From: Rhizodiscina lignyota
Lineage: Eukaryota
Direction of reading: 5' to 3'
Assembly (NCBI GenBank): GCA_010015805.1
Contig: ML978125.1
Location: 1,488,001-1,552,000, forward strand
Length of the DNA: 64,000 nucleotides
Part shown: piece after piece, positions 36,484-63,039 of the stretch
How the letters are laid out: each line of letters begins with the position of its first letter
Position numbering within the stretch: position 1 is the stretch's first letter
The notes under the pieces: generated by a model
What the model saw: the letters and a program-made list of their open reading frames with translations, nothing else
Database searches by the model: none
What the model was told of the DNA's origin: nothing
Made by a program: the position numbers and the translations under genes

Positions 36484-38567
36484 TCACTGCTGCATGAATA
36501 GAGGCTCGAGATGAACTGCAGTAGGCATACCCTGCTGCTGAGAATTGAAATAGAGAGATGCGCTGTCTATACCGCACGTCTGAGGTGGGTTGTAGACATT
36601 GAAAAAATCGGTATTGTCGAATTGCGACACCGCGAAGTCATTGGAGTAGGACACTCCGTCAGCTTCGACGATGTAGGGACCAGTGACAGGTTGGTTGCTG
36701 ACAGGTTGGTTGCTGACAGGTTGGAGGTTCGTGCCGGCACTTCGCGGATCTTGGAATTGAGTCGGCATTGGGGTGCTGAAGGTGGAGGTCGGGGCAGATG
36801 TTGATAGATTGTTCATCGCATACTGCCCGTCGAACTCTTCCGAGTCGTCAAACGGAACGACAGAATCAGGGAGGACCTCCTCTTCAACTTCTTTGATCCA
36901 CCCCTGCTCTTTCAACTCCTCAATGCTGGGCGTGTCACCACCAGACTTGCCACCTTTCTTTTCGTCATCAGGAATCGGCGCACCTCTTCTTCTTCGGCCG
37001 CGACCATGGCCCTTGTCTCGTTTGTTGAAATGTAACCGGCGCAAATGGGCCGCAAGGTTGTAGTATGCGTAGTATTTCTTCCCGTTACGGCAATGCTTGC
37101 AGTTTGCGAGCATCTTCTTGTCCTTCGAGACATCCACAGCAATCCAGCACTTGCGACTCGTGGCATGTTGACGTTGTATATGCCTTGTGAGCTCATGATC
37201 GCCACGGAAGCCGTCAGGATGATCGGAGCAGTGCGGACATAAGAGCTTGGGCTTTTGCGGCCGCCGGTATGGGGCGCGTGGGATGGAAGCAACAGAGCGC
37301 GTTGTTTTACCATCAGCTGACGGTATTCTGATCGGCATTGGATTCGACATGGCTAGCTGCGGCCGTGCAACATGCGAGGTTGGTTGGGGAAAGGAGACGC
37401 CACGGCGACGGAGTTGCGGTTTAGAGTCGTTCGATTGCGAAATCTGGCCGACATATGCACCCTCATGCTCAATGCGACGTTGCAATGTCGCGTCAGGCGC
37501 ATTGAGTGAGGAGATGTCTGAGTGAGGCTGGATAGATGGAGTTATTGGCGTTGACGAGGGACATAATGAAAGCGGCGACGAGACCGCACCACCATAAACA
37601 CCACTATCGAAATTTGCGTGATTGACGATATGTGAATGAGAATTAGCTGTCAAGTCGTTGGACTTCACAGCAGATGAATCATAATTGCTGAAGGGTGACT
37701 CTTCGGCAATGTGAAGATTAGAGAAAGAAGAGGCATTCGACTCAAGACGAAGCATGTTCATGTGACCACCTATGCTTGTTTGACGACTCATGTCGCTGTC
37801 AAGAGTTGTGGCTTGCGTCAAAGCACAGCTCTGTGGGGTAGGGGGGAAGTTGCAGTCTTCGAATTCTGCAGTCCACTGGCTCTGAGCCGAGGACGGTGAA
37901 GGTCGTGGGGCTTGCAAAGATGAAGCTCGTCCGCTTCCGTCAGTGACGAGATGGAGTTGCGGTGGATATTGCTGCGTCTCGCCCGACTCGCTCTGCATAT
38001 GCTCAACGAACGCAGCGGGCTCGAATTCTTGAACGTTTGTGTGGAACACAGCGTGGGTTGGACGAGCAGTAGTGTTCGATGTAGTCCAGGTGTAGTGACC
38101 ACCTTGCTCATCAACACACTCGTAGCCCGGGTCAGACTGTTGCGGAGCCTGTACGTTGTTGACGAATTGGGGCGAATATGAGGGCGCGTCGACTGGCGAG
38201 TAGGTATGGTTGCGTGACATGGAAGGTGCGGCTGGAGCAGACTGAACGGACATTCCTTCGTTTCTGCTCATATCATTACAATTTGAAGAGTCCTGCTGAG
38301 GTTAATTCGGAGTAGGAACTTGAGAGCCACTGGACTTACAGTAGTTTGAGCCTGAAAGAAGGCAGGCTGTGTGAAGCTTCGAGGGACGTGGGGTGCGTTT
38401 GATATAGTTGGAGCGTTCGCAACAAGAGAGCAGAGAACGTCATGCTCGTGGAGGCTCCAAAGAGTCATTCGCTGGTCCTCTGAAGTATTTGAATGATTTT
38501 GCCAGAATGTTTGCTTTGCCTGTTTCCAAGCTTCGATGAAGGGGTGATCTGACAGAAGGGTTGCCAT
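36484..38567 (-). CDS. Atypical zinc-finger protein resembling the KLAP1 (key lime pathogenicity) family
   Basis: CPHCSDHPDGFRGDHELTRH..H, CKHC..KKYYAYYNLAAHLRRLHF and GGKSGGD.P. One phase-0 intron (GTAAGT..CAGCAG, approx. 38293..38339) joins ORFs 38268-38567 and 36484-38271. Confidence 0.72.
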
Positions 38568-39615
38568 TACTGAAGGCTGAAGAAGATCAGGTACAATGCG
38601 AACTGCAGATCAGTCTGCAAACACACGCGCAGTAACAAAACGTTTGAAGTGATCTGCTGCGTGGCGAAGGATTATGAGGGATGGAAATAATGTTCAACGT
38701 CGCAAATGAAAGACGAGGATAGGTAGTGAAGCGATAAAGTTAAGGCGATGAGTGAGAAGTAGAGCAGAGGGCGGACAACGGCCGGATCGCCAGTTCATAA
38801 AACGTGGGAGACTCGCACCTAACCCTCACCCGGGCGTGATGGACGCCTGCTTTGCTGTCGCATCCTTCTTGACAGGCCTAGCTATTGGCTTTGGCTTGAT
38901 CAGGTGGATGATTGTCGCCCGGCTCGCGCTGATTGGGAGGCGCCTCGGGCGGAAGACGGCTCGAACAATGCTGTGGAGTCGGCGTGGAAGTGAGGCCACG
39001 AATGGCAGCGAGCCGAGCCTCAACCCCGGCCGCGACCACGCCAGCCCATTGATCCACCATGACGGCCGCCCTCTGCCTTACCAACGCCCGCGCTCACCGA
39101 TTCTAGTATTCGTGATAGGGATCGTCAGTCGCTTGAAACTCTTCCCGCAGCTTGACGCCTTCAGAATCCGGGGTCCCTCAGCCATTTACGCCCAGCCCTG
39201 ACGCTCTTCACCCCACCCGCCACGACAATCCGCCCACGCTTGCGCAATTGTTCATCATGTACGCCATATTTGGGCTCGAAAGCTGGAACAGCCAACTAAA
39301 TTTCCGACTTACGGGTTTTCGGGCCGCCTTCCACGCAAGTATCACAATTTTCTGCTTCATATGTATCATATCAAACGCCAACTTGATACATCAGGCCAGC
39401 CACTTTCGTGTGCGTCATTCCGCCACAACATAATACTTTTCCTGAACTTCGCCACTCTACAAGCATCTCTGCTCGTAAATGCGATATATCACAATGATCG
39501 TCCCCAACAGGTCTTGTTTCGTTCAAATCTCCATCATTCAATGAAAGAAAACTCTGCCATAAGGCTGTAGCCGACCCCATAGACGCATCGAGATCGCACT
39601 TCATCACAACGACCC

Positions 39616-40676
39616 TTACAACAGAAACGTCTGCGGCACCGGCGGTCCCCAAATGTGCAAATTATCAGGTCCAGCCTCAGAGCGGGCAATTGGCGTGGTT
39701 TCGTTGACCAAGTCTCCGTCCACTATCAACTGTCAGAAAAAAAACGTCATAATCGGACCATGAGGCTCACCGTAGTGTTCTAGAATGAATTTCGACGGGT
39801 CATACCTGTCCTTGTCGTCAGCGCATCAATTTACAACAAGCGAAGTTAGCGACAGGACGGTACGTACCAATAGTCGAAGATCTGGGAACCCAGGACATGT
39901 CTGCCAACTCCCCAGACAAGCTCATAGTTCTTCTCTCGTAGCCACTGGTGCCCAAGAGATTGAATATCAAAGTCGTGGACTTCAAAGCTGGAGTGGTGGA
40001 CATGGAATTTCGGTCCCTCGAAAAAGAAGAAGACATGATGGTCCACTTGTTCCATACCTCTGTCGAGGTGCATGAACACGCTGATGTCCTTCCCCTCATG
40101 AGAGATGAGATCGCTCGGCTTAAAATTGAAACGGCTAGTATAGAACTCGAGCGCCTTTGCAAAGTCCGTTACGCAACATCCAAAATGGCCAAGTTTGTGA
40201 ACTGGAGCTGGACCGTGTTTGAAGCGTTGCGTCTTGTTGACGGGACGATGCTTTGCTTCGGGGAAGTTGAAGTCGAGCTCAGGGAGATGTGCCAACATCT
40301 CTATTTCGGCCTGGCCGTACACAAGGTGGAATGGGAATCCGTCTACCGGGTCATAGAAAGTCACACGCTTGCCTCCCCCGGGTGCATCAAGATCGTGGAT
40401 CGCCGTCGCTTCTGGGAGTATCCTCGTTGCGAGCTCAAGGTCTTCCATGGAGTCGACCACGAAAGCAGCGCCTCCGAAGGCATCTTCATCCCCTTTGGTC
40501 CCACAGTATACAAAAGGCGCTGTGCCATAGCCTTTGTAGAAGATTTTATCAGATTGCTTGTCTGTCACCGTGAACCCAAAGTCCAGACAGAACTGATGAG
40601 CCTTATCAAGGTCTTTGTGTGTATAATACACATGCGCTATGCGTTTAAGGCTGATCTTGTCCTGGGCATGAGGCAT
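39616..40676 (-). CDS. VOC-superfamily extradiol ring-cleavage dioxygenase (trihydroxytoluene oxygenase-like)
   Basis: Two glyoxalase/VOC domains with HKLGHFG, HVHHSSFE and WGVGRHVLGSQIFDYW. Two 3' introns add YDPSKFILEHY-VDGDLVN..LHIWGPPVPQTFLL*. Confidence 0.88.
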
Positions 40677-41150
40677 CGCGCAGAAGACGGCAGGAAGAGG
40701 ATATGCAGTGTGAAGTGACTAATGTATTGCCAATCCATCAGATGCTTCAGAGAATTCTCCATTTGATATGTCCCTTCGTTGAACCCGCGGAACACCGTGT
40801 ATCACCTAAACAATTCGTCAACTGGTGTCATCTTCGCCCTTTCTTCCTACAATTGAGTTCCCCGCAAAGATGTTGATGCGGAGATATGCCGAAAGCGGGC
40901 GAATTTCGACCTATTCCAGATTGCACGGCAAAACAGATGTGCCGTCATGGGTCCTTCTTCCTAAGATGGTCGTTGGTGACATGCATCGCTATACGCTATC
41001 ATTTGCGAGAGCAGGGAGGGCCTTGAATTGGCTCCTCCACCAATTTTATCTCTGGGGCTGAAACTTGGTGGGGGAACTCAAGCTGTGGGGTCCCGTTTGC
41101 TGTGGCCACGCGACTTCGTTATTATTTTGAAGGCATGGCTGCCACGAGCA

Positions 41151-41179
41151 TTTCGCGGAAGGAGCGCACTTCCGCGGAA
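41151..41179. promoter_or_regulatory. Candidate Zn2Cys6 binding sites (TTTCGCGGAA and palindromic TTCCGCGGAA) in a divergent promoter
   Basis: CGG-containing elements at 41151-41160 and 41170-41179, with a related CCGCGGAA at 40785-40792. Confidence 0.4.
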
Positions 41180-41417
41180 AGAAGATATCTCCAATAGCCC
41201 TCTTCGGCCGCCTCTGTGCGTCGAATACACCAGTCAGGCGACCTCCCGGCTACGCTCTAACGTGAGAGCAAACTGAGTTTGTCAGTGATTATCAAACTAT
41301 TTTCGCCCACATAGATCGTCATTTACTGCCAGAAAGGGCAGCTCTAAGGAACTTGGGTACTTCATCGCTTCATGATATATTCTGTGCGTTCGGTCACTGA
41401 ATGTAGCCCCAGCAAAC

Positions 41418-43437
41418 ATGGCTTCAACAACAGAGGGAGAGACTGTGAAGACGGAGCTCCTCATTGTCGGAGCTGGCCCAGCGGGCGCATCGCTGGCCTG
41501 CTTCTTGGCCTCTCATGGTTGGTTGCTCTGCAGGAGAAGCTCCACGAGTGGCTAATGTAGCGACAGGCCTGAAAGGCATAATGATCGCGGCCACTTCAGG
41601 CACATCAGAGACTCCAAGAGCTCATATAACCAACATGGCTGGACTTGGTACAGTTGTTCCAAATTAAAGAGATTAAAAAATCTTCGATACTGACATGAGA
41701 CGATAGAGACTCTGAGAGACATTGGCCTGGACGAACAATGCATCCAAGCTGCGACTCACGGCGAGAACATGGTGCACACGCGCTGGTGCAATACCATGGC
41801 CGGCGAGGAATATGCTCGTATTTATTCGTGGGGAAACGATCCCGCTCGAAAGGTGCGAAGCAATCAATTCGACGCATTCATATCAATTCCACTTTATTGA
41901 TATGTCGATTAGGGTGACTATGAAGCCGCAAGTCCATGCGATCATGTCGATCTGCCTCAGACGGAACTCGAACCCATTCTCACCAGACGCGCTATCCACG
42001 GAGGCTGGACCATGCGATTCAATACGGAATTTGTGCGCTTTTCTAGACCATCTCCGGACGTCGTCATCAGCGAGGTCCGCGACCGTGTCACAAACCACAC
42101 GTACAAGATCCAATCCCGTTTCCTCTTCGGTTGCGACGGCGCTCGCAGCCAGGTCGTCCGCGAGCTCAAGATCCCGCTGATCAAGAAGCCTGGCCAAGGA
42201 CTTGCTCTCAATGTGCTTGCTAAAGTGGATTTGTCCAAAGTCGTTGAGAATCGCATGGGCAATCTGCACTGGGTGTTCCGGCCAGAAAGAGAATACCCCA
42301 TATGGGGTTGGTCGCTAGTTCTACGGATGGTGCGGCCGTGGAAGGAGTGGATGTTCATATTCCTCCCACCTCCATGGGCTGATGTGACCGTTGATGCCAT
42401 GAATCCGACCCACGAAGAGTGCATCGCCCGAATTAAAGAATTAATTGGAGATGATTCGTTGCCGGTGGAGATTATGGATATGAGCAAGTGGTGGATTAAC
42501 GAAACCGTCGCAGAATACTACTCGGACGGTAATATGTGGGTGTGCCTGCTTTCAAACAGTGGCTCTAGTCCAGGCAACTGATACTCGTGTCCTCAGATTC
42601 TGTTTCGGCGATGCTACGCACCGACATCCTCCATTCAACGGCCTTGGATCCAATACCTGCTTGCAAGACGCCTTCAACTTGGCCTGGAAAATCTCATATG
42701 TAATGTCCGGTCGTGCTGGTCCAGAGCTGCTCGACTCCTTCAACGTCGAAAGACAGCCAGTTGGAGTCGATGTAATCACACGCGCTAATCAAGGCCTTCG
42801 GGATCACGCACTGTGGTTAGAGGCCATCGGTATGATGGAGGATGACGTGGAGAAACGGAAGAAAATCCTTGCAGAGTTCGATGATCCTGGCGAGAAGGGG
42901 AAAAGGAAGAGAGAGGCATTCCAAAAGGGCATCGAGAATACTGCTACCGAATTCCATGGACTGGGCATTGAAATGAACCAGCGGTACTTTTCAAAAGCTG
43001 TCTACGCAGCCGATGAACCTTCTCCGATGCCACCGCCTCCGGAAGACAAAGTGCGGGAGCATCAGATCACGACTTATCCTGGGAAACGGCTGCCGCACGC
43101 ATGGCTAAATACACGCTTACCTGGCAAGCCATTCTCAACTATTGATCTCGCCGGTCACGGCTGCTTTTGTCTTTTCACTGGACCGAGTGGAATGGCATGG
43201 AAAGATGCTGCATCCAATGTCTCAAAGCGTTTGGGAGTAGAGATCAGAGCCTACAACATCGGTTGGAAAGGGGATTACGAGGACGTGTACTTTGATTGGG
43301 CGAGAAGGAGGGAGGTTGACGAAGATGGCTGCGTGCTTGCTCGGCCGGATCGTTTCGTAGCTTGGAGGTCAAAGAGCATGATCCGGAATTGCGACGTGAA
43401 ACTGGAACAAGTTATGAAGAGCATTCTGGCATTGTAG
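41418..43437 (+). CDS. FAD-dependent phenol monooxygenase (PheA/TfdB family), 4 introns
   Basis: LLIVGAGPAG (FAD binding), TPRAHITN, DLPQT, FGCDGARS, GDATHRHPPFNGLGSNT..QDAFNLAWK, PGKRLPHAWL and LARPDRFVAWR. Confidence 0.92.
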
Positions 43438-43854
43438 ATAAGCGTGCTCGAGGGTAACAAAATTATTGGCCGCAGCTTTCAAGGCACTGAGCATCTGTTG
43501 TACATAACCTTTGCTAGCAATTTAGCGCGCAAGTTTTTCAATGTTGCGCTATTGTGAAATACACTTCAACATAGAACCAAGCTTTCGGAGGTAATTTCAT
43601 CTGCTTTGCAGTGCGAGAGGAACATACCATGAAGTGTTACAGTTTGCTCAGCTACCAGGTACTTTATCATTCTCGACACACGGCACAAAAAAGGCAAGCG
43701 ACTACGCGAATGCACAATGTTGTCTTGGCCAAGAAATTTGATTCTCAAACGAGCGTATGGTTACTGAAATAGCACTTAGTGTCAAACTAGAATCTCCCCA
43801 AGCCCCTCGGGCGAATTATCGAAGACAACATTTGCCCGCGCCTCATTGATCTTC

Positions 43855-44148
43855 TCACTTCTGTCCGCTTTGCTGGCCTTGCTGGCCCTGAGTTCCACCG
43901 GTGCCAGCTCCAGAAGAAGCTGCGTCGTTCTGGTTCTCATCATCGGCGCTTTGTGCACGAGCTGCAAAGCCACTGGAAGACATGTCCTTGTCGCCTTGGG
44001 CCTGGGAGAATATTAGCTTGAACAGATAGTCAAGAGGGAGAGATAATCGCTCCGCGTCGCTGCTCACCTGCGCAGACTGGATTCGGCTCGAGTCGTCTTT
44101 TGTCGTCGGAGTCTTCTGATCCCACCGAGTTGTTTTCTTGTCTGCCAT
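43855..44148 (-). CDS. Small hydrophilic SMP/LEA-like stress protein
   Basis: MADKK..TKDDSSRIQSAQ, intron (GTGAGC..GCTAAT..CCAG), then AQGDKDMSSSGFAARAQSA. TATAAA box at approx. 44267 on the minus strand. Confidence 0.65.
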   Translation of the reverse strand: MADKKTTRWDQKTPTTKDDSSRIQSAQVSSDAERLSLPLDYLFKLIFSQAQGDKDMSSSGFAARAQSADDENQNDAASSGAGTGGTQGQQGQQSGQK

Positions 44149-45146
44149 TGTTGTATCTTCCACGATTGTATTGAATTTTGAGAGGAGAATGTGTTCTGCC
44201 GCAAATTGAGGTTCGTCGAGATGCAGATGTGGTCTACTCCACAAAGACGAGAGAAGGAATGCTCCTTTTATATTCAAATTGAGAGTGGCATACTCATGAG
44301 AGATATTGAACGCAAACTTCATACTCCAGCTCTGTGGTATCCGAAGACCCCAGGCAAACAATAACGAATTCAACTTAAGCAACTGAAATCATTTGTGAAG
44401 ACATTTGCTCCAATAACTCGGAACTTAAAATATTAAATGGACTGCAAGATTGCTTGCTTCAGTGGCATAAAGACATGTGCTATTCGGAAGTTCCCAATCG
44501 ATACATATCGCCAACTTTGAAGAAGCTGTTCCTAAGGCCAAACTCACACTTAGCATCGCATTCGTACAGAATAGAAGACTCCTCAACCTGCTGGGCAATT
44601 TGAGTGAAAAGGTGGTGTCGAGACTCCACTTGGACATCGCAGTAGCTGCCGCAGTTTGTTTGTGCGAGGAAGCGAACTCTTTTGATCAACTGCTCATTGA
44701 GGACGGCTTGAGATAGTCATGAGTTCCCATACTCGAGAAGTGAAAACAAGCAAGAGATCATTTGCCGTAAATTATCACACCTCGGCCCTATGGATTGGAA
44801 GATCAGTCTTGGAGCATAAATTTTGATAGAAGATAAACAATGGGCCGCAATTTTCTTGGTACCCCTAACCTTTTTCGGACTTCGAGGTGGAGATGCGGGG
44901 AAGCGAGGACGGCACCCTGCATGGCGGTCAATTTATGATTGGCCATCCTGAACCTTGATTAGGCCGCAATATCAAACCTCACTTCTTCCGATCACTACTC
45001 TTGAAGTTACACGAGATATATGAGAGTAGTACAGACTGCATCTTGAATTCTAATGGAGCAACCATAATAGCTTGCATCTATTATTCCATTTAGCGATACC
45101 CACACAGCCAATTACTGCACAGTTTGCGCTTTCGACTAATATCAAC

Positions 45147-46904
45147 ATGCTCGTCATTAGCGGATTTGCCGTCTTGCTAGCGGGTACTCTGCTCTACCTT
45201 TTATTGTTTGTTGGGAGGAGAGACCGAAGGCTGCCACCCGGTTTGTCGTTTCACCTAAACTCATAACAAGTAATAGCATCTCCACTTACAAATGACCAGG
45301 TCCACCGACGCTCCCAGTCATCGGCAACCTGCATCAGATTCCAACCCAGCGAGCTCACTTGACGTAAGCTTCTTCTGATCCGACTTAATTTCTTTCACTA
45401 ACCCGAGCGCACAGTTTCACAGAATGGGCAAAGAAGTATGGAGAGATTTTCTCACTCAAAGTCGGTCCGGGCAACGCCATTGTCATCACTTCGCCACGAC
45501 TCATCAAGCAGCTAGTCGATAAGAAGTCAAGCATCTACAGCAATCGACCGCCATCTTATGTTGGCAATGGCATCATTGCAAGGAACGATCATATCCTCAT
45601 CATGCAGTATTCAGACAGATGGCGGACCTGTCGGAAGTTAATCCACCAATACTTCATGGAGAAGATGGTGATAGAAAATCATTTGGCACTCGTAGATGCA
45701 GAGGCAGTACAGATGCTACGAGACTTTCTCGTTGTGCCGCAAAGGCACATGAGACACCCGAAACGATTTAGCAACAGCATTATCATGAGTCTTAGTAAGT
45801 CAAAAGCTCTGGCTGAAGTGGCTGCCACTCGTTTCTGACGAAGTTCAAGTTTATGGCGTCCGCACGCCGACAATTGAGACAGAGCACATGCAGAAGCTCT
45901 ACCATCTCATGGAGAACTGGTCCAAGGTCATGGAGCCAGGCAATGCACCACCTGTCGATATCATTCCATTCTTGAAATATGTCCCAGAGCGGCTCTTGGG
46001 CATGTGGCGGTCTCGTGCACAAGACGTCAGCAATGAGATGAACAAGCTCTATAACCAATGGTTGACTCATGTCAAGGAGCGCCGCGAGAGCTCTGGTAGT
46101 CGGGACTGTTTCCTCGATCGGGTACTGGACCAGGAAGAGAAGCTTGGGTTCGACGCGCATTCCATTTATTTCCTGTGTGGGACATTGATGGAAGGTGGAT
46201 CTGACACGACCAGCTCAATTGTCATAGCATTCGTGCACGCCATGACGAAGTGGCCCGAAATCCAGAAAAAGGCACAGACGCAGATTGACGAGGTCGTTGG
46301 CGAGGACAGATCTCCCACATGGGCGGATTACGACAAGCTTCCATATGTGGCCGGGTGCGTAAAGGAAGCAATGCGGTGGAGACCAGTGGTACCTCTCGCT
46401 TTTCCTCACGCACTCGCGGAGGACGACTGGGTCGACGGAATGTTGCTGCCAAAGGGCAGCGACGTCATCATCAATGCTTTCGGCATGCACCACGACGAGA
46501 AGAAATTCCCGAATCCGGAGAGGTTTGACCCAGATCATTACAAAGGCCAGACAGCACTAGCTTCCGAGCTCGCGAATGGCGACTGGGAGAACCGTGATCA
46601 CTACGGATACGGAAGTGGTCGGAGGCTCTGTCCTGGTATCCACCTCGCGGAAAGAAATCTGTTCCTGGCCATCTCCAAGTTACTCTGGGCGTTCAACATT
46701 GAAGCAGGTGTTGATGAAAATGGCGAGCGCATTGAGCCAGAAGTGAGCAATGAGAAAGCTTACAGCGCTGGATTCCTCGTCTGCGCCGAACCATACCCGT
46801 GCAACATTACTCCGAGGTCTGAAGAGAGAAGAGCAACGATTCTGAAAGAGTTCGACTCCGCGAACGCGGAGGTGTTCTCAAAGTTCGAGACCCCAAAAGC
46901 GTGA
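45147..46904 (+). CDS. Cytochrome P450 resembling CYP619 (PatH/PatI m-cresol hydroxylase type), 3 introns
   Basis: Membrane anchor and PPGPP hinge, MQYSDRWR..RKLIHQYFME, HPKRFSNSI, I-helix EGGSDTT, EAMR (ExxR), and heme motif YGYGSGRRLCPG. Confidence 0.93.
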
Positions 46905-47345
46905 AAATATTTGCAAGTTACCTTCCTACGGACGGGGATCAGGCTGTACGATGACTCCAGGATTGATTAATAAAAATGATTGGATTGGCTCACTGATCTG
47001 TCGTTGATGGTGCGCCTCAAAGCTCGTCTTCCGCGTCCTCGAACTTGTGGTTGGGATGCTGTTTTAATGTGAACACTTTCTCTTCCACAGCCACTGTGCA
47101 CGTAGCTGAACGATAGTCTGAGCTGACAACAGCTCTTCCGTGACCCTAACCCTGGCTGGTGACACAACACATAAATTGGGCCGGTCGCTTATCTGCGATT
47201 TTACACGCGTACTTGAAGCATAATGTGACTTCTCTTGTAGTCAATGTACAGCGTTGCGCACGAGTTCTGCACGGTTGACTTGATGTCCCACAGACTTCTC
47301 AATGCTCCTGAGCTTTAGAGTTAATTTGTTCTATCACCAGCACGC

Positions 47346-49013
47346 TCATGTTTCGATCTGACCTGACATTGACCGCCATTTGGCATATCGAAATATCGCT
47401 GGTTGCAGAACAGGCTCCATATCTCCAAAGCTGTAGATGCCTAACATGATGCCACAAAAGGCCATTCCAACCAGAGGTCCCTGTGTCATGGTCGCCATAT
47501 TGATCTGAGCAACGTATTCCAAGTCCTCATTGCTCTCAAATTCCCTGAATCCGATCTTGTACCCTCGAGCATTACACAGAATGCTGAAGAGAAGCGCCCC
47601 GGAGCTGTGCACGAGGTCTCGTCTTGTGGTCTTGAAATTTCCCTTGCCATCAACTGGTGTTGTCACGACCAGCTCACGCCGGTCAGGACTGGGTCTCCGA
47701 AGTCCAATTGTTGCATAACAGTACTCGTGATGCCAGAGGATAGCGCCAGCTTCCCAGCGTGGGTTGGAGCGATTGAAGTCCATCTCCGTTGAAAACACGC
47801 CTTCCAGGTCTGATTGCTTTCGCAAGAGCATCGATGAGTTTTCCGCTGATCCCGGGGGATAGCTCCCACCCATCAGCTCAAGACCTCCAGACGAGAATGA
47901 CCAATAGCGCTTCAAGGGTGTCTTATTATGGTACCAGCCGAGCTCAAGCTCCGGGCCTGAGAAAGTGTCTTCCCAGTCTTGGTTGATGCTCAGCTCATAC
48001 GTGCCAGGCGATGGCACTCCTTCGAGAGAGACATTCCGACGGTGGTTGAAAACTGGCCAGTTGTCCTCCCAAGTGACAGGAACCAGGTACGTCTCTCTAC
48101 CAAAAGGGCTGAATGTTTGGAGCCTTCCGTCTGCTATCGTGACTGGCCTTACACCAAGAAGCACTGCCCACCAATGGCCATTTGCGTCTTCCAGCACATC
48201 AGCATGTCCGGTGCATTGAACACGCTCTGTGCCATTGTTATACCACAATGGCTGGCCCTCACTTCCAGGTCGCTCTTCCCAGGGACCAAATGGTCCGTGA
48301 GTGCTCCGAAAACACCACTCAGTGTGTCCGCTCTCAGTACCACCTTCTGCCGTGAGCAGGAAGTAGAAGTGTCCATATTTGAAGATATGGCTGCCTTCGC
48401 TGACTCCAGGGGAAACGGAGCTAGATCTGATCATCTTCGGAGGGGTCAAAGACGCTCCAGAGCCCAGGTCTACTCTTGATATATGGATTGCAAAATTCTT
48501 TGGAAACTCCCTTCGGTATGACACATCATCCTCATGCATTCGGTATGTTGTAGAGAGATATACGGAGCCATCGTCATCCCAGAAGAGGTCCTGGTCGAAG
48601 CCTGGCTGATCAAAGTAAATCGGATCTGACCATGAGCTCGAGTCCCAAATATTATCCGTCCACACAAAGAAACCGCGAGGCCAGACACGGTCATCGGCTT
48701 GTGGTCTGTATCGATCCCATTTGCATGTGCATATGTACCATCTTCCGTTCTTATGCCGGATTGTACTTGCCCAGATACCGCCGCCAGGTTCACATGTCCG
48801 GAGATCCAGTTGCGGCCGCCGCGTCAGCGCGTGTCCTACAAGACGCCATGATATCAGATCTGTCGAGTGGTAGATTGGGATACCCGGGAAGTACTCGAAC
48901 GACGACGTTATAAGGAAGATGTCGTTCCCTTTGCGAGCCCAGGAGGGATCGGGGTTGAACCCCGTAAGTATGGGATTTCTATACGGTCGAAGTTTGTGAG
49001 TATCTGCTGCCAT
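47346..49013 (-). CDS. GH43 beta-xylosidase/alpha-L-arabinofuranosidase, no signal peptide
   Basis: NPILTGFNPDPS (Asp), SSFEYFPG, GIWAS, FDQDLFWDDDG (Asp), SEGSHIFK (Glu), TGHAD and GRETYL, plus a C-terminal beta-sandwich. Intronless. Confidence 0.92.
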   Translation of the reverse strand: MAADTHKLRPYRNPILTGFNPDPSWARKGNDIFLITSSFEYFPGIPIYHSTDLISWRLVGHALTRRPQLDLRTCEPGGGIWASTIRHKNGRWYICTCKWDRYRPQADDRVWPRGFFVWTDNIWDSSSWSDPIYFDQPGFDQDLFWDDDGSVYLSTTYRMHEDDVSYRREFPKNFAIHISRVDLGSGASLTPPKMIRSSSVSPGVSEGSHIFKYGHFYFLLTAEGGTESGHTEWCFRSTHGPFGPWEERPGSEGQPLWYNNGTERVQCTGHADVLEDANGHWWAVLLGVRPVTIADGRLQTFSPFGRETYLVPVTWEDNWPVFNHRRNVSLEGVPSPGTYELSINQDWEDTFSGPELELGWYHNKTPLKRYWSFSSGGLELMGGSYPPGSAENSSMLLRKQSDLEGVFSTEMDFNRSNPRWEAGAILWHHEYCYATIGLRRPSPDRRELVVTTPVDGKGNFKTTRRDLVHSSGALLFSILCNARGYKIGFREFESNEDLEYVAQINMATMTQGPLVGMAFCGIMLGIYSFGDMEPVLQPAIFRYAKWRSMSGQIET

Positions 49014-49643
49014 TTCAATTCGAAATCGTGCTCACTGACACTTACCATTCGAATATTCCCAGGTACAGTACATAACGCTACCAATATATCGACATTATGG
49101 TGCAGAAGAGACGTTTCTCATTCATGGAATAATTGGCTCCGCTTTCGGCGCGACAGGGATGCAAGCTTGAGCGCGAGACGCGTCGGTGGTCGACATTCAC
49201 GCGTCAATCTCGCTCTTTAAATCTCTAAGTGGCCCAAGTTTCATGCAACCAAAATATGTTCCCTCTTACGAATTTGTTCCACGGTTTTTATTTCATAAAG
49301 TGGTGCAGATCGTGGAGATTCCGTCAACTGGCGCACTGTTACACGGACGCATTTGAAAGGGCGGGCGACAGGTCAGCTAGCCTGAGAAGTAGAGCAAATG
49401 CTTTTCCTTTTCGGTTTTGGCCTGAAGTCAAAAAGTGCTCTCGATCAGAAAGACATGGGTTTTCGAAATCTCCAGCGTTCAGCATTACGAGCTTCATCCA
49501 AGAGGCTATATTTTCGACCCGACTCCTCTCAGATGGCGAGTAGTACTCTTTGCCAGCTGTAACAAGTCGGTCTGCTTTTTATCCGCTGTGGAGAGTCCAG
49601 TCCAGTGACTGTCGTATCAACTATGTATCATTTTCCTTCGGAT

Positions 49644-50589
49644 TTACTCAAACACCATCTTGTTTCTGATCGATCCTATGCCGTCCACAGTAATTTCAAC
49701 CACGTCCCCATTCTTTACGAAGCCTTTGGGCTCCATGAACAGACCAACACCACTAGGCGTGCCAGTTTGGATTGCTGTTCCTTTTCGTAGCGTTGTTCCG
49801 CGGCTCAGATGTGCAATGATCTGCCTCACTGTCCAGATCATGTCCGATGTCTCTGTCTCCTGCCTAAGCTCGCCATTTACCTTCGTAGTGTAGTGCAGCT
49901 TTTGTGGATCTGGGATGAGTTCTGCAGAGGTTATGCAAGGGCCAATGGGCGCAAATTTGTCGAACGACTTCGCATAGCCATGTTGGCCGCCTGACACATC
50001 AGGCATCTGAAAGTTTCTCGCGGACACGTCGTTTCCGACAGTATATCCAAGAACGTAATTCAGAGCATCAGCTTCGGATACGTTCTTCGCGTCCTTGCCA
50101 ATGACGACTGTAAGTTCTCCTTCGTAGTCGAGATGGCTTTGGCATTCTGGATGAACGGGCACGTCTTCGTATGGTCCTGCTAATGCATCTGGCGGCTTCG
50201 TAAAGATAACCGGATTAGACGCGAGTTTGAGCTGCATGGTAATAAGCAAGGAACTCCAACCAAGATCTACTCCAAGATACAGTTGACGTACATTGGCCTC
50301 CGCTGCATGCTGTCGATAATTCAATCCGACACACATAACTATGGGGACACCGGGAAGAGGACATAGCAGCTGGGTATGGTCAATTTCGATTCCTCATGAT
50401 TGAGAAAATGTGAAGTACTTTGTGTATCTTATCCGTCTTCCCCGCCCTTGAAAATTCCGAATGGAGGTCCCCATTCAGAACCTCAACTTCCGCACCTTCT
50501 AATGACCCACTACCAGGCGCTTGCTTCAGATCTCCGAAGTGAATATTTCCGCTTGAATCTGCATATCGCACAAGCCATTTGAAGCTCAT
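49644..50589 (-). CDS. Fumarylacetoacetate hydrolase (FAH) family protein, 2 introns
   Basis: CVGLNYRQH, PVIFTKP, LDYEGEL, GYTVGNDVSAR, KSFDKFAPIGP and TGTPSGVG. Confidence 0.92.
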
Positions 50590-51132
50590 GTTGCTACGGA
50601 CTTTTGGCTGCGGAAATTACACTCTCAGAAAGATATGAGAATCAACTTTCTCTCTATGGTAGGAGTAGTTACATTTAATATGGGCGTCTGACATCCGACG
50701 TCTTCCCAAAGTGCCTCACTGTGCTTTCCAGAGTACTGACTAATGGAGCATGGGCGGAAATTGGCCGAGAACCCCGCGAGTGACCTGAAGTCAGCCTCTA
50801 CAGATAGATTCAAAATCAGCTTCATGTGTACATACGGAAATTTAAAAATGTCATGTAGCCCAGTATGGAAATTCAGAAGCTAAGGGTTTCGAACCGAAAA
50901 AATGCTTGATCAGGGTTTACTACCTAGGAACTAGCGCATGAGGTCGAAACAGCTGACAAAGCAGGCTGTAGGGCTACCACCCCTCATCTGCGAACGGTGA
51001 GAAATTCGTCCGACACCCTCCACTGATCTCACCGTCATTCATAACGGAGCATTCGCCCTCACTTCGGTGTGTTCCTCCAAGGACGTCGTCTATCTCAATA
51101 AGCCGTCACCACGGGCCTTTTCAATACCGCAG

Positions 51133-53886
51133 ATGGCCGATGAGGCTGAAAACAGTGGATCTGGAGAGCACGAGCATGTGGCTGAGAACGTCTCAGCAGA
51201 TGGCTTGTCACCATTGGCGTGCTTCAGCTGCAAAAGGCGAAAAGTGAAATGGTAAGGGAGCACAAGTACTTCTTCAGAAGCTTCACGCGCTGAAGCGGTC
51301 GATATGTTGTTTCCCTTCTGATATTGAACACTGCATTCACTCCATCGCTCAATGGACGCGTCTGATATTATCGCGCTCGTGCCATTCGAAAAGGGACGTC
51401 AAGCACTAACTATGATAGCAACCGGGCATTGCCGACGTGCTCGTTATGCACCAAGATCGGGGCGGCATGCGAATACCCTACGCATGCTGAAAAACCTGGG
51501 CCTAAAGCTGGTATGTTCGATTCCATGCACTACTCCAACATATCTTACGGCCGGTCTTAGCTTCGTCATCGGGGTAATCAAGGCTGTTGTGCTCCCAATA
51601 TTTTCCACGTCCATCTATAAGCGTAGCTGGATCAATCGGATCACAGTTTTGGGCACACTCTCGGAAACATTAGACGATCTGCTCGTTGCAATTCGTAGAT
51701 TAATGAATCTGCAGGAACCCCACAAAAGAACAAGCGACGTCGAATAGGCGATGGCCCAACAGCCACATCTACATCGGCCACTGCACCATCCGAAGATGGC
51801 CCTTCTCCCCCCACGGGCTTTGGGCTCGATATTATGGGAGGCGTCCGGGGCCTATCATTTGGCCGCCATGAGGGTGACATAGATCACCCACGTAGACACA
51901 GTGAGAACAACACTGCGGCTACGGGTACTCTCTCAATTCCTTCTGAGAGAAAGACGAGCCATTCGAAGGCTCCAACCTTGGCTCAAATCATGTATCCATC
52001 TCATGAATTGCAAACTCGACCTCAATCACCATTCACCCCGGACCCCTCCCCTGAGCGGCCGAATAAGGCTGGAAAAATGACGGTCGAAAGTGTCTGCGAG
52101 GGCTTAAAAATATCTACCGATACATATCATTTCCTGTAAGCTCAAGCACCCGCTGTTTCCGCTGTTCCACCGCTGACGGATGGATTTCCTTAGTATGGAA
52201 TGCTATTTCGCGAACATGACGACGTACTCGCTTTTTAAGCCGCATTCGATTGAGAGCAAACTACCCCAGATGCGAAGTCGAGCAGAAGCCGAAGCATTAA
52301 TCGCTGCCATGTTTTCTTTTTCCGCCCGTTTCGACGGCGGCCACGACTTTGCCGGCCGTACTGAGGATTGCCCGGCGCCCAATTATTTTGCGCACATTGC
52401 GTCGTCCCAACTGGACCGCGCATTGAACGAGTGCGGTGACATGACACCTCCATTATGGGTGTTGCAAGCTTGTATACTGGTGACATTCTACCAGCTCACA
52501 CGAAGTGTTCGCTCACGATCATGGCGAGCGCTTGGTAGCTGTATCCGGCTTGCTTATGACATGCAGTTGCATATTGTAGATGCTAACCATGATCGAGAGG
52601 CGGCAGCAGAAGGGCGTATTGACCTGAAGAAGTGGTCGGCCCAAGAAGAACGAAGAAGAGCCTGGTGGGCCATTTGGGAGATGGACGTTTTCGCCAGTAC
52701 GATCCGGAGACTTCCCACAGCCATCGACTGGGCTCAGAATATGACCCTTCTACCAGTACACGATCACTACTGGTTCAACGATTTATTCCAGAACAGCACT
52801 TTCCTCGTGCATGATATCAACCTGCGCTGGAAATGTCTTGCCAAGAGTGGCAACAACAGCCCACGAGCTTGGTTCATCGTGATAAATTCGCTGATGAGAA
52901 ATACGCAATTGATCGTTTACCCTCCCGGATCTGCAATGCAATCTCCGTATGAGAGACGAGCTGAATCCAGTCAGGCCGACCTTGACATCATGGCAAACTG
53001 CCTTTACTGCACAGTCGTGTCTCTCCCGCCGGAACTTTCGTACAGCGGTGAAACGCTTGACTTCCACACACGTGGCTCTCCTCGCGACATCAATCCGCGA
53101 CAGTACCACTGCGACAAATACAGCCTGCACCTCATGACACAGCTGGCACGGTTCATGTTCTACCATCACAAAGTCAGCGCCCAAGCGCCGTGGGTTCGTC
53201 CCACTGGGGAAGAACAGGCAAACGAGAGCAACGCAACGACGTCGGAGTGGTCAAACTACATCAGTGCGGCAGACGAAATCGTCACAGCGATCAGGAACAG
53301 CTCAAAGGATCATTATAAATATGTGAACCCATTCCTCATGAACTGCGTCTGGTTTGCTGCTGCCGCACAATGCGCCTGCAAGGTCTTCGGTCCAGCCACC
53401 TTCGACAAACGTGTAGCAGATTCGAATCTTGCTTTGCTACGACTCACTGTGGAGCGCTTCATTACGTTCTGGGGCAGTGCGGATACATTGAAGAGCAAAC
53501 TGGCTCGCATGGAGCAAGGCTTGAAGAGCTTGATGGCGAAGGAGAATGGAGAATCAGCCCCGAAGCAAGAACCGTCTTCCGCAACACGCCACGAGAGTAG
53601 TGCATCTCAACCGAGCTTCACGCCTCAAAGTACTGAGACATTGCCCGTGCCGTACCAAACTCCTGGTACGGATCAGTCCATGCCGTATACGGCTGTCGAT
53701 CCCGGCGATCCGGATGCTTCGCAAGGCTTAATGAGCAATCCGTATGACTTCACGCAGCCGTTTTTGATGCCGGATGTGAGTGGGTTCTTGAGCGGACCCA
53801 CAGAGTACTTCCCGTATGGGTTGGAAGAGCTGTTGATGTATGGATCTGCACCTGGACAACAGTTGCCTGCCCAAGCGCCGACATAG
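51133..53886 (+). CDS. Zn(II)2Cys6 transcription factor with fungal TF middle domain, 3 introns
   Basis: Spliced cluster ACFSCKRRKVK-C-NRALPTCSLCTKIGAACEYP, and EERRRAWWAIWEMDVFAS in the middle homology region. Confidence 0.9.
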
Positions 53887-54618
53887 TGTCAGCCGGAACG
53901 ATGGTGTAGATGACATTCTTTTGAATAGAGGCAAGCTATCATTTCGATGCTAGGCACACGTTATGTTAAAGGACATGAATCCGTTTACGTATTGATGTCG
54001 TAACTACCTGTAGAGTCTACCCTTCTTGTTGTTCACAAGTGATGGTCCGTGTTGTTCACCTGATGAGCGGAGGGTTCGGCCTTTACTATGGCACTTTCAT
54101 GAATATCCAGTGATGAGCGCCATCAACAGGGATGCGGCGAAGGTAAGCTTCGGTGGACCTCCATGGCGTTGCTCAACGAGAAACATTGAGCAAAAGTTCA
54201 CTTGGGTTGATTTAACTGGCACAATGACATTGCTGGAGTGAGAGGCATTGAGGAAGTCTCTGGTTCGTTCATTATTCAATGTTTAGATCTGGGTTTAAAT
54301 AACCTTCACAAATTTAATGCAGCTAAGGTCGGTTGTTTCTGACTACTTGTGATTAACGGTGCACAGGTCAAAAGAACATCTGGAACCAATAACCCTGGTT
54401 CCATTGGACTTGCGGCAAGGCGCATTCTGTCTCTTCCCATGTTTTACCAACAAACGAACACCTGCACGCGCTTCACAATTTCCACGTGTGCATGGAAGCT
54501 TTATGACACTCCATCTCCCTTCATTCTCTTAAATTATTTTTCTCAAAGCTTCTACTTTGCAGACTTTCTGTCCCACCATACCAAACACCGCGTCACAGTG
54601 CGCCTGGTTCTCGTCAAG

Positions 54619-55491
54619 ATGCTCGCGGGTGCACTGAAGATCGCTTTGCTCTGGTCCTTCGCGGGATTCTGGCAAATTGCGATGCTGTTCAAGTCGTTTG
54701 TCGGAATAGCGGTGTTGGTCGTTCTATCCATGGAAGGACTGCATACTGTGTGGAGATGGTACAAGACTTCAACTGCTTCGGCACTTCCTGTCATTCTGGT
54801 AAGTCTAGCGATATGGTCATCTTCTCCGCGTCGTATTACATTGAGTCTTCTGACAGCTTAACAGGAGCGCAAGGCCGATAAAGCCGCTGAGCGGAGGATC
54901 AGTGGCTTCCGGATCATGGATCTCCCCGCTGAAATTCGCGTTCAAATCCTTAATTACTGCGCAGAGATTCCGGTGTCGATCGATCAAAGACTCTTCCGCA
55001 AATATCAGCCAGTCATTGTCGCCACGACGATGGTCTCTCGCAAGCTCCGAAATGAGGCTGAAGAAACCTTCTATGCGCGCAACACTTTCGTTTACGACTT
55101 CGGCGCTCACCGCAATACCTTAGCAGAGAACTTCGAGGCCGTGCGAGACCGTAGAATGATGCGTCGCTACCTCCAACCCGACACGCCATACCCTTTCCCT
55201 CATCGCGTTCGCCCTATGATTCGACATCTCGCGCTTGTGCTTGTCGTGCCCAAGCCATCGGAGATGAGCCAGGCCGTCAAATTGTGGATGTCTCCACTGG
55301 TATCGCTGAAGCGTGATGGCTTCACGAAGTTGACGTCGCTGAAAGTGTCCTTCTCTGTAGTGTACGGACTTGCCGAGGGCAAACTGAAGCCTGCAGTGCG
55401 TGCCACGATGGAGCAGGCCGCGCGACGATTCGTCTCCGAGATCCAGCTTCCTGCGACCACTGTGGATATCGATTGGTCAGGTCTACAGTAG
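54619..55491 (+). CDS. Hypothetical protein: hydrophobic N-terminal exon plus F-box-like LPxEIR domain
   Basis: Intron 54799..54864 (GTAAGT..CTGAC..AACAG) joins a hydrophobic exon in frame to FRIMDLPAEIRVQIL..VSRKLRNEAEETFYARNTF. Confidence 0.65.
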
Positions 55492-55945
55492 GTGACATGG
55501 AGGGAAGACTGCATCTACGTGAGAGATGTAGTGGAGCAATTTCATACATTACGGTTTCGTGACAAGAATGGCTTGGGACATTGAAGGCGTCAAGTTAAAT
55601 GTCAGCATAGACATTAAGCAGGCGATCGGTGGCGTTTAGCGAGAATGTCTTCAGAGGATGTCAAATATACAACCTCAGTCGTTTCGGGGAGTTGCTAAAG
55701 TGGCTCTTTCTGCCTCTCGGAGTAGCAATAGCATAAGCTCTTGAAGGAGCAGGTACAACTCAATGATGAACATACTTACGCCACTTTACTCTCCTTGCTC
55801 CCATTGGGTTTCCACTTTCTCTCCTCATCTCGAAAGACCATCGTGGTTGTTCCCAATACAACATCCAAATCATCATTCTACTACTAATTCGAAAGTCTAG
55901 CATCACCAGCCTTTCCATTTCCCATTTCTGCTTTCTGATACCACG

Positions 55946-56855
55946 ATGACAGCAGCAAGATCCATCGAGTTGCCGTCAGGGGACGAAGCACAGCTCGTCT
56001 CCCAGAAGATGCGCGAGGAAGGCGGTTCTCACAAGGGACCAATGGCTGCTCATGTCCAGTCCGACGTCGCAAAGAAGCATGTAAGTCTGCATGTAGCATG
56101 TGTACTGCCATTAGCTAAGCCGACGCGAGCAGAACTTCGAGAAGGTTGCCGAAGCGATCCAGACAAAGATGGACTCTAATCCAGCGTCTGTAACAACGGC
56201 GGATGCTAGTCACATCCAGAAGCTTGAGGCGAGGGTCACAGGGGGCTGTGTGCCGAAGCATGGAGTGTCTGCTCGCGCTCAGCATGTCGCTGCCGTGAAC
56301 GGGCCAAAGACCGCAGAGGGCAGCGATAAGGCCGAGACAACCAAGGGAAACGGTTCATACGACGACAACCGCAGCGTCCTTGAGCGGTTCAAAGCCAAAA
56401 GCCGCCGTGAGAGGAAAGAGCGGGGCCACGATGATCATGAGATCGCTACTCTGAGCGCGGAGACGCAGGCAGCCTTTGATGGTCTCATGGCGGATCAACA
56501 ACATCGTTATATAGCAGCTGGGACTATAGGGATAACGAAAGCTGCTCTTCTCGCTATGCACTCCACATGCCCGAGCGGAGATGGCTGGCGCAAGATATTG
56601 GAGGAAGTCTTTGAGGGACTTTGGGAAGAACCACAGAATACTGGAAACAATGAGCAGTTCAAAGATTTGATGGCTGCTTACGAGAAAGCGGCGGACAATG
56701 TCCTTAGGCAGACAATTCCGAACAAAGATCGTCAGGAGCAGCTTTGCAAGAAGTTCAGGGAATTAATGCAAGAGCAGCTGGAGATGAATCTTGACAAAAT
56801 CGTGGAATCGTGGGACTCCCTGGAGAGCTGTACGGATGGCTCTGTGAAGAGATGA
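55946..56855 (+). CDS. SMP/LEA-like N-terminal repeats fused to an unknown helical domain
   Basis: GGSHKGPMAAHVQS, intron approx. 56081..56132, then VTTADASHIQKLEARVTG..GVSARAQ. Confidence 0.6.
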
Positions 56856-59061: not shown

Positions 59062-59518
59062 ACTGTCAAGTATAAAGATTGCGGTGTTGGGGAATGCACA
59101 TTGGAGCAAGATGATCTCGACATGATTAATTGGATCGAGCACCCGTACGGCTGAATATTTCCTTTGTGCTTCTTGGACGGCTAGAGGTACATCAAGCAAA
59201 AGTGATATGAAGCGGGGGTTTTGTTGTTCAGATAGTATGAGTATCGAACAATGTTGATAGGAATTGGAAAGCCATCAATTGAGCAGTCTCACAAGCACAA
59301 CTGAACGTCCAATAGAAGTAACTCTGATTATGTATATGCTGGAGATCATTGCATTCTTTGAGATCTGCACAACCATGCATTCGCGTCATCTGTCTTACCA
59401 CCGACTATGTCCGATATGCACCCCGCCAAAAGACAATAGCTTCCCATCATCTCACCACCACGCAATTGCACTTCTTTCTCTTCTCTCCAACAGTCAATTT
59501 CATTGATTGATTTTCACC

Positions 59519-60895: not shown

Positions 60896-61371
60896 GGGAT
60901 AGCTGGCTGGCATCATGATCAGGGTCAAATTGATCAGGCATGAGGATTATGCATGGCAAATTGACATTTGCTTGGTGTATTAATAATAATGATAATGGGC
61001 TATGGAGCTAATGATAACATTTCCCCTAATTAATAGCGAACTTTTCGCACAGAAGTTGAAGACAGACCCGCCAATTTTGCCTCTACTACACACCTGGGTA
61101 TTTACCCACGACTCTATCTCCAACTCCATCTCCATTTCTACCTGTCCGCTGTCGGAAATTAGACTGCCGTATGAGAAGCTGAGAGGTTGGAATCGCTTGG
61201 TAAAATCATGCAAAATGGATTCTAGCCACTCTATATATAATTGCAGCATATTATGCATCTTTCATCCAGTCTCAGATAAACGCCTAGAAAAAGAAATATG
61301 ATACAGAGAGCTTAAGAAAGCTGAATGCAACGGCCCATCAACATTACTCCATACACCGACATTGAAGCTGC

Positions 61372-62295: not shown

Positions 62296-62541
62296 GGTGA
62301 CAAGTCGGGTTTCGCCTGACGCCAATGAAGAGGAAGACTTGGAATGAAATTTAAAGGGGCTCAAATGTACGCCTTAAACGCTAGAATTGAGCAATTTAAT
62401 GAGTGAATTGACTGTTGAGATTGAGAGTGGAAGACTTGATGTGATTGCGTTTGAAGACTGATTGATGGCCATTGTGACTATGTTCGTCGAGGCCCCTATA
62501 TACCTACCTTCTTTCTGTACAGCCTCAAAATATCCAAGAAT

Positions 62542-62548
62542 TCGTATA
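62542..62548 (+). promoter_or_regulatory. Sterol-regulatory-element-like TCGTATA (Upc2/Ecm22-type site)
   Basis: Exact TCGTATA approx. 40 bp from a TATATA (62497-62502) in the RTA1/TF divergent promoter. Related TCGTAC at 62579 and 62764. Confidence 0.45.
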
Positions 62549-63039
62549 CCAAATCCTCAGGGGCTTGCGAGGCTCCCATCGTACCTGAACGACGAGCGTC
62601 GGAGGCTCTCCGCAAAATTCACTGTTCGGTGTCCGGAGGCGCTGTCGTGCTCGTTGTCGTCCGCAATTGCACCCAAATAGGAATAGTGTACGGCGAACGG
62701 ACCGCCTGAAAGCTCAGCCCTGCCGATGACAGCAACTTGCAGCGACTTAGCTATGCGACCGGATCGTACTCCTTTCCTACTTTGTCTTACGAAGCAACTG
62801 CTCGGAACAGCGACGCGTCTGGTTGGTTCCTCAATGCCTTGAACGTCGGCTTTTTTCAGAAATGCTTTCGTCAACCATTTCGTCTAAGCCGCCTTCCTCA
62901 GAGCGTACCTTTCAGTGATGAAGAGCTGGAGAAGCGGTCGAGTAGCGGTCGAAATGGTTGTCGGAAGTCTTAAAAAGCACTGCAATTGTCCAAAGAGTTG
63001 GCCCAAGCCAGTTCGAATTCGTCTATCAGTTTAGAGGAA

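Follow-up and report, generated by a model that had tools for sequence, protein, structure and literature searches.

A conserved five-gene cluster of Rhizodiscina lignyota and other moulds suggests a fungal extradiol route for phenol breakdown

Five genes of Rhizodiscina lignyota, a Dothideomycete and wood-decay fungus, form a cluster that is conserved across moulds: a vicinal oxygen chelate (VOC) dioxygenase, a flavin adenine dinucleotide (FAD) monooxygenase, a CYP619-like cytochrome P450, a hydrolase of the fumarylacetoacetate hydrolase (FAH) family and a Zn2Cys6 transcription factor (TF). They lie in a 64,000-nucleotide stretch of contig ML978125.1 (assembly GCA_010015805.1, positions 1,488,001 to 1,552,000), here called the window. 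The co-location of the five genes is not chance; for a sixth, a glycoside hydrolase of family 43 (GH43), it may be. It is very likely that the cluster encodes a catabolic extradiol pathway for some phenolic. That it is an inducible cluster for a small, cresol-like alkylphenol, with the chemistry that we infer below, is an even call: the substrate is the weak step, and the alkylphenol our inference.

We read the stretch from 38,000 to 56,000 and built gene models by script with GT-AG introns. Six intact genes were obtained, none with internal stop codons, and together with their Pfam matches they bear out an earlier, sequence-only reading of the window, which had described six such genes including two divergent pairs. 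The VOC gene (39616..40676, minus strand; exons 40676-39868, 39805-39771 and 39722-39616; Glyoxalase, PF00903) encodes a two-domain, type I extradiol-type dioxygenase of 316 aa, and its model is identical to the deposited R. lignyota protein (P0001/KAF2099818.1). Across a spacer of 741 bp it diverges from the class A FAD monooxygenase of the TfdB/MhqA type (41418..43437, plus strand; 596 aa, 5 exons; FAD_binding_3 and Rng_hyd_C, PF01494 and PF21274). The microsomal P450 follows (45147..46904, plus strand; 530 aa, 4 exons; p450, PF00067), then the intronless, beta-xylosidase/arabinofuranosidase-like GH43 gene (47346..49013, minus strand; 555 aa; Glyco_hydro_43 and GH43_C2, PF04616 and PF17851). 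The second divergent pair, with a spacer of 543 bp, consists of the FAH-family hydrolase (49644..50589, minus strand; 278 aa; exons 50589-50419, 50369-50292 and 50231-49644; FAA_hydrolase, PF01557) and the Zn2Cys6 factor (51133..53886, plus strand; 774 aa, 4 exons; Fungal_trans, PF04082), in which a script finds the six-Cys pattern at residue 30. The same reading had noted the lack of a backbone synthase, and this was confirmed: Pfam finds no polyketide synthase (PKS), non-ribosomal peptide synthetase (NRPS) or terpene domain in the 96 open reading frames (ORFs) of at least 120 aa outside the cluster in the 64-kb window.

The VOC protein is predicted, from sequence and model, to adopt a two-domain fold of the type I extradiol type and to carry out O2-dependent ring fission. 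Its residues H164, H228, E279, H214, H260 and Y269 align with H145, H209, E259, H194, H240 and Y249 of the 1han chain (BphC), six positions which we take to be the metal ligands and catalytic residues of that enzyme; alignment A1 shows five of them as invariant, its first row ending before E279. An AlphaFold model of residues 1-269 reaches a mean pLDDT of 87, and its top Foldseek matches are mostly extradiol dioxygenases (3b59, AphC, BphC, HPCD and C23O; E about 1e-15 to 1e-13, TMq about 0.7). Residue alignment and fold matches uphold the extradiol-type assignment made earlier. Against the NCBIfam equivalogs HpaD, C23O, BphC and HsaC the protein scores 25-77 bits for cut-offs of 320-450, and passes none of them.

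Bacterial relatives of the VOC protein reach 34-44% identity. An FAH gene lies within the locus of 68 of 80 such relatives and some flavoprotein monooxygenase in 48 of the 80, counting one locus (L106) that looks fungal. Of the six such loci that were annotated, five share the order regulator-FAH-VOC and have a transporter and a nitroreductase-family gene nearby; four of these five also carry an aldehyde dehydrogenase. We also observed that the closest bacterial relatives (40-44%) belong to Pseudomonas and Halomonas operons (L088, L091, L097, L098 and L042) with the layout regulator-FAH-VOC. As for L106, it is filed under a metagenome-assembled genome of Deltaproteobacteria, has a Zn2Cys6-type TF homologue and shows the same match pattern as the fungal L063; by these signs it is probably fungal contamination.

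The other enzymes have intact motifs as well. The FAD monooxygenase keeps its GxGxxG, DG and GD motifs, and is 36% identical to annotated MhqA and 40-43% to three uncharacterised bacterial relatives. In the P450 we find a transmembrane anchor, EGGSDTT, EAMR, PERF and the heme motif; three relatives, at 78, 74 and 61%, are labelled 'cytochrome P450 family 619' by JGI, the atlas giving 'P450' only. The FAH-family hydrolase is 39% identical to the FAH encoded downstream of mhqA.

Conservation was followed along two lines. In named genomes we took the best 120 matches per search, together with 10 proteins from each of three cluster look-ups, and judged proximity by accession numbers; this evidence covers the VOC/P450 pair, the identity of an intervening gene not being readable from accessions. 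Relatives of both proteins were placed in 23 named genomes and are 1-2 accession numbers apart in 17 of them, spanning Sordariomycetes, Leotiomycetes and Eurotiomycetes. The linked pair occurs in Echria macrotheca, four Chaetomium genomes (in C. globosum as CHGG_00016/00014), Apodospora, Coniochaeta ligniaria, Coniochaeta 2T2.1 (two copies), Podospora didyma, Cercophora, Madurella fahalii, Leptodophora, two Leptodontidium, a Mollisiaceae, Tolypocladium ophioglossoides and Aspergillus nidulans (AN10624/AN5045). Two of the 23, Cladorrhinum samala and Penicillium daleae, in which the contigs of the two genes are equal in length, were counted neither as linked nor as unlinked. The P450, suspected before as CYP619-like, is by this linkage a regular member of the cluster, its family being given by label.

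The second line consists of 80 metagenome loci around VOC homologues, searched with the window proteins. L001-L014 make up 12 distinct loci, and at least one cluster partner accompanies the VOC gene in 8 of the 12. L005 holds P450, monooxygenase, VOC, TF and FAH at 60, 60, 67, 34 and 61%, and all five genes are also present at a more distant locus, L025. Others retain subsets: TF, monooxygenase and part of a P450 in L009, P450 and FAH in L014, the TF in L003 and FAH in L008, with the divergent monooxygenase/VOC pair in L001, L011 and L013; in L004 and L012 the flank on at least one side is too short for partners to be judged. Homologues of the TF at 34-46% adjoin the VOC gene in L003, L005 and L009, and in the gene model P0298 one is fused to it. 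As gene order differs among the loci, we infer selection on linkage. No synthase or further conserved enzyme was found by Pfam scan in 146 ORFs from 12 fungal loci. Absence of clustering in other fungi had been named beforehand as what would speak against the cluster; the VOC/P450 pair recurs in named genomes, and the five genes together in metagenome loci.

Two observations concern the VOC gene itself. A DUF7896 gene adjoining it (36484-38301 of the window) is found again, inverted, in L002 (11460-13183), where the other cluster genes are missing; the VOC gene may long have held this position, with the cluster either lost since or built up around it. In the VOC tree the window sequence stands beside a Sordariomycete clade (support 89/72). 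Horizontal transfer to or from Sordariales was considered and set aside: a tree that groups the window sequence with Verruconis and Patellaria, both Dothideomycetes, is not rejected (p-AU 0.61).

The cluster promoters share a candidate binding site. We searched for gapped words in 11 promoter regions from the loci of 8 other genomes, keeping the window as a held-out case. CGG-N3-AATT ranked second, with 8 of the 11 training regions and 3 of 80 background pieces. Once fixed, the pattern was found in 4 of the 11 cluster regions held out (the two divergent promoters of the window, FAH/VOC of L025, twice, and a paralogous cluster on C14, once), in none of 5 unclustered VOC promoters and in 3 of 69 background pieces. 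This suggests a candidate Zn2Cys6 half-site; it is not proof. The window sites lie at 40896..40905 (plus strand) between VOC and monooxygenase and at 51003..51012 (minus strand) between FAH and TF. A third match (43808..43817, plus strand) precedes the P450 start by 1.3 kb, a small ORF lying between, and a weak near-match with one extra base (49131..49141, minus strand) is upstream of GH43. The window holds 7 instances of a looser form of the site where 3.5 are expected, a number that 6 of 100 shuffles reach; three are in intergenic gaps of the cluster. Linkage and shared motif together support the earlier proposal of a self-regulated catabolic cluster of monooxygenase, VOC, FAH and TF as probably right.

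We propose that the P450 and the FAD monooxygenase would add one ring hydroxyl each. In the simplest order, an alkylphenol would be hydroxylated by the P450 in para position to an alkylhydroquinone, then by the monooxygenase to an alkyl-benzenetriol; the reverse order, via an alkylcatechol, is an alternative. A third ring hydroxyl is expected because an FAH-family enzyme takes the place of an alpha/beta-hydrolase, as in the Hcd pathway and reportedly in the Dnt and orcinol pathways. The VOC dioxygenase would open the ring beside the diol, using Fe(II) and O2; given the third hydroxyl, the ring-fission product would tautomerise to a beta-diketo acid, which the FAH-family hydrolase would split to pyruvate and small acids. 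The Zn2Cys6 factor would activate the divergent promoters through the CGG-N3-AATT sites.

This proposal rests on gene content, linkage and intact motifs, and several observations weigh against it. The 33-39% identity to named bacterial enzymes is too low for a substrate to be assigned. VOC and P450 are unlinked in 4 of the 23 named genomes (Capronia epimyces, Cladophialophora psammophila, Xylogone and Phialocephala); the P450 of L009 is a C-terminal part only; and L002 and L007 have a VOC gene (70-73%) with no partner at all in 20.8 kb. The CYP619 assignment is a database label on relatives, not a comparison with PatH/PatI. CGG-N3-AATT emerged from a pattern search that was large and used a crude background, and is absent from 7 of the 11 held-out cluster regions, including the 900 bp 5' of the window P450. 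Finally, two of the three closest bacterial monooxygenases adjoin a maleylacetate reductase and an intradiol dioxygenase, not a VOC gene of the cluster type.

The last point also fits a different substrate, that layout being the one of resorcinol/hydroxyquinol pathways. The same ring opening could serve a naphthol, a hydroxycoumarin-derived acid or a phenol of the resorcinol or orcinol type, the P450 then carrying out side-chain oxidation or dealkylation in place of ring hydroxylation, and the monooxygenase family does include a 1-naphthol 2-hydroxylase, McbC, 55% identical to MhqA (PMC5141477). We consider this possible, if doubtful: the Hcd orthologues are distant (HcdB 21% over 153 aa, HcdA a 72-aa patch only), and neither an aldehyde dehydrogenase nor a reductase, lactonase or transporter is conserved in the fungal loci scanned; bicyclic or side-chain routes, which would usually need such functions, are thereby disfavoured. 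Tailoring or self-protection, with the backbone synthase encoded elsewhere and the oxygenases working as in patulin or terreic acid biosynthesis, is a poor prospect. The characterised CYP619 enzymes of the papers cited below are indeed biosynthetic, and catabolic and biosynthetic clusters are hard to distinguish according to Gluck-Thaler and Slot (10.1101/184242); yet neither the window nor the related loci that we scanned contain a synthase, and both the FAH partner and the operon context in bacteria favour breakdown. The epoxidases AtD and PatJ belong to the cupins and not to the VOC proteins, so AtD of the terreic acid pathway was dropped as a precedent for a VOC epoxidase. A chance island of metabolic genes could appeal to the solitary VOC genes of L002 and L007 and to two of the seven genes looking incidental, but is scarcely credible when the same five genes are found together in differing orders across fungal classes.

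GH43 had been put forward as an entry enzyme, and our results speak against that role. That it works in this lineage, removing xylose or arabinose from phenolic glycosides before they enter the pathway, is unlikely, even though the gene is intact and placed between P450 and FAH. Its Asp/Asp/Glu catalytic motifs align with 5z5d, the GH43 and C2 domains are present, and the protein, with no hydrophobic N-terminus, reads as cytosolic. It differs from the orthologue usual in Dothideomycetes and forms a separate small clade with two Logan proteins (73% and 63%), is at most 51% identical to the named proteins compared, and a representative search gave no full-length relative above 50%. Its promoter near-site and the VOC-promoter site are preceded by 8 identical bases; the 12-mer concerned has 14 copies genome-wide (control 10), two of them in the cluster. 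Against this, GH43 occurs at none of the 80 metagenome VOC loci, L005, L014 and L025 included, which span P450 to FAH, and is unlinked to VOC in all three named genomes compared: Verruconis (PV09_05140 versus PV09_01481), Thelonectria (different contigs) and Bisporella, where a suspected co-location was discarded at 261 accession numbers apart. The glycoside idea is weak for these reasons, and the GH43 promoter is without the exact site. The 11-mer that it shares with the VOC promoter, rejected as proof of co-regulation, is matched or exceeded in 21 of 69 background pieces. Only one full-length copy of its kind was found in the genome, and for a single copy of so widespread a family a general role on hemicellulose oligomers suffices. 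Another unrelated gene, SMP-like, sits inside the cluster too. The fair reading is that GH43 is a lineage-specific passenger and not a conserved member, unless shown otherwise.

The SMP/LEA-like gene just mentioned (43855..44148, minus strand), small and hydrophilic, would encode 75 aa on splicing of a 66-nt intron. The earlier count of six genes holds, this seventh having been overlooked. It finds no match in the 80 metagenome VOC loci and would, like GH43, be a lineage-specific passenger, probably so in our view; its SMP identity is a lead from the atlas (PF04927, score 0.86). A second SMP/LEA-like ORF lies 12 kb away at 56115-56855 (plus strand), and the likeness between the two is no more than marginal (33% over 33 aa, E 0.1). 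The flanking genes are of housekeeping type (tubulin, SAS4, adenylate kinase, a PX protein). Three consecutive ORFs on the minus strand (22165-27097) together carry ankyrin, SPRY and NACHT-like (NPHP3_N, AAA_16) domains and represent a fungal NLR-like gene, split by introns or broken. Past the tubulin gene, 59507-63450 carries a questin-oxidase-like gene, an RTA1 gene and a Zn2Cys6 domain, none of which is found beside VOC homologues.

Elsewhere in the genome, VOC clusters of like design exist on C4 and C14, which makes the one studied here a member of a family. The C4 cluster (G000:C4:2562001-2581000; L174, L175) comprises a thioesterase, an NmrA-like protein, P450 (36%), a Zn alcohol dehydrogenase, an FAD monooxygenase, FAH (54-61%), VOC (40%), a monooxygenase (24%), a Zn2Cys6 TF (27%) and an MFS transporter. 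On C14 (G000:C14:182000-193000; L176, L177) a third VOC gene is accompanied by FAH, FAD monooxygenase, carboxylesterase, NmrA-like and AMP-binding genes; CGG-N3-AATT stands in the divergent gap between FAH and monooxygenase, with a looser match 5' of VOC. We also noted a fourth VOC gene (37%) at G000:C2:1609001-1627000 (L178, L179), with an FAD monooxygenase, an acetoacetate-decarboxylase-like gene, a CocE/S15 hydrolase, a P450 and a GMC oxidoreductase. That Pezizomycotina possess a widespread and so far undescribed family of VOC-type meta-cleavage pathways, a single genome holding several paralogous clusters each tuned to another phenolic, and that in the cluster studied here a CYP619 of a kind otherwise met in mycotoxin biosynthesis supplies the dioxygenase with benzenetriols, seems to us about evenly poised. 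The full version, in which a lineage-added divergent GH43 also extends the reach to the phenolic pentosides of wood, is improbable.

The five-gene cluster is real and conserved, and it is apparently uncharacterised. We found no characterised fungal VOC ring-cleavage cluster in the literature, where subscription papers were thinly covered, and nothing on the locus tags of the cluster or on orcinol or trihydroxytoluene in Aspergillus niger. A report of the 1980s is said to describe orcinol breakdown by A. niger via 2,3,5-trihydroxytoluene. In the accessible literature fungal ring fission is described via intradiol enzymes and the gentisate route, the latter of extradiol type (PMC8283699), and a Scedosporium genome paper has 'trihydroxytoluene oxygenase' as an annotation only (PMC5716253). 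Gluck-Thaler and Slot (10.1101/184242) may list the gene set as an uncharacterised model in their supplementary cluster tables. If our proposal is true, fungal aromatic catabolism would gain a lower pathway, an extradiol route of the VOC type that brings its own hydroxylases and regulator; it would be of relevance to lignin-derived phenols, hydrolysate detoxification and bioremediation, and a catabolic role would be suggested for CYP619-like P450s. With VOC and P450 adjacent in Aspergillus nidulans (AN10624/AN5045), the question is testable in a laboratory model.

Among known fungal systems, it was the stilbene-degradation clusters to which the core had earlier been likened. The three published models built on a stilbene cleavage oxygenase (SCO) list no VOC gene in the available part of 10.1101/343673; model 2 has a cupin gentisate dioxygenase, a salicylate hydroxylase, a fumarylpyruvate hydrolase and a TF. 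Gentisate/stilbene clusters of this kind share with the window a hydroxylase, a ring-cleaving dioxygenase, an FAH-family hydrolase and a Zn2Cys6 factor (PMC3914699; 10.1101/343673), and a Scedosporium gentisate-type cluster has a P450 too (PMC8283699). They differ in kind: a cupin dioxygenase, a salicylate/hydroxybenzoate-type hydroxylase and SCO on their side; VOC and a TfdB/MhqA-type monooxygenase, with no SCO, in the window, whose Pfam matches include no stilbene cleavage oxygenase, DHBD, cupin GDO or VAO. With no SCO here and no VOC in the SCO models as available, we abandoned identity with a stilbene cluster, and the likeness proposed earlier is one of analogy only. PatH, PatI and AtE, of the patulin and terreic acid pathways, carry the same CYP619 label as the P450 relatives at 61-78% and hydroxylate cresols and methylcatechol: CYP619C2 turns m-cresol into toluquinol (PMC3153204), and AtE, 63% identical to PatI, 3-methylcatechol into 3-methyl-1,2,4-benzenetriol (PMC5794859, PMC12720273). 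Those enzymes sit in PKS clusters with cupin epoxidases, whereas the R. lignyota cluster has no PKS and has a ring-cleavage module.

By analogy, the cluster would work like the bacterial Mhq, Hcd and Dnt modules, not being shown to belong to any of them. The lower pathway of 2,4-dinitrotoluene is said to consist of a monooxygenase (DntB), a VOC extradiol dioxygenase (2,4,5-trihydroxytoluene oxygenase, DntD) and an FAH-family enzyme (DntG). It is bacterial and serves a xenobiotic, and its likeness would be one of design; DntD does not appear by name among the matches listed in our plasmid searches. The hcdABC genes of the Pseudomonas mandelii 7-hydroxycoumarin pathway have been shown experimentally to form a flavin monooxygenase-VOC-FAH triad acting via a trihydroxy-aromatic (PMC6222606): an FAD hydroxylase makes the trihydroxy-aromatic, whose ring is then cleaved by an extradiol dioxygenase of type I, and an FAH protein removes the product, with no P450 involved. 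Orthology with hcdABC was rejected after comparison with loci whose protein ends match the published primers, as the HcdB-like protein matches at 21% over 153 aa, the HcdA-like one over 72 aa only and the HcdC-like one at 37-38%. In methylhydroquinone metabolism, MhqA is a flavoprotein monooxygenase and MhqB an extradiol dioxygenase (PMC4572682, PMC5141477), the mhqA/mhqB genes of strain NF100 going back to Tago et al. 2005 as cited in PMC4572682. Plasmid byi_3p of Burkholderia sp. YI23 carries a VOC homologue after annotated mhqA and before an FAH gene; annotated as glyoxalase/dioxygenase only, this homologue is presumably MhqB by position. The YI23 operon has a thiolase, a CoA ligase and LysR/LuxR regulators, and no P450. 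Its mhqA-like monooxygenase, VOC and FAH are co-located and homologous to those of the window at 36%, 33% and 39% over full length; other bacterial monooxygenases are closer (40-43%), and among the named operons tested this one is the closest to the fungal cluster.

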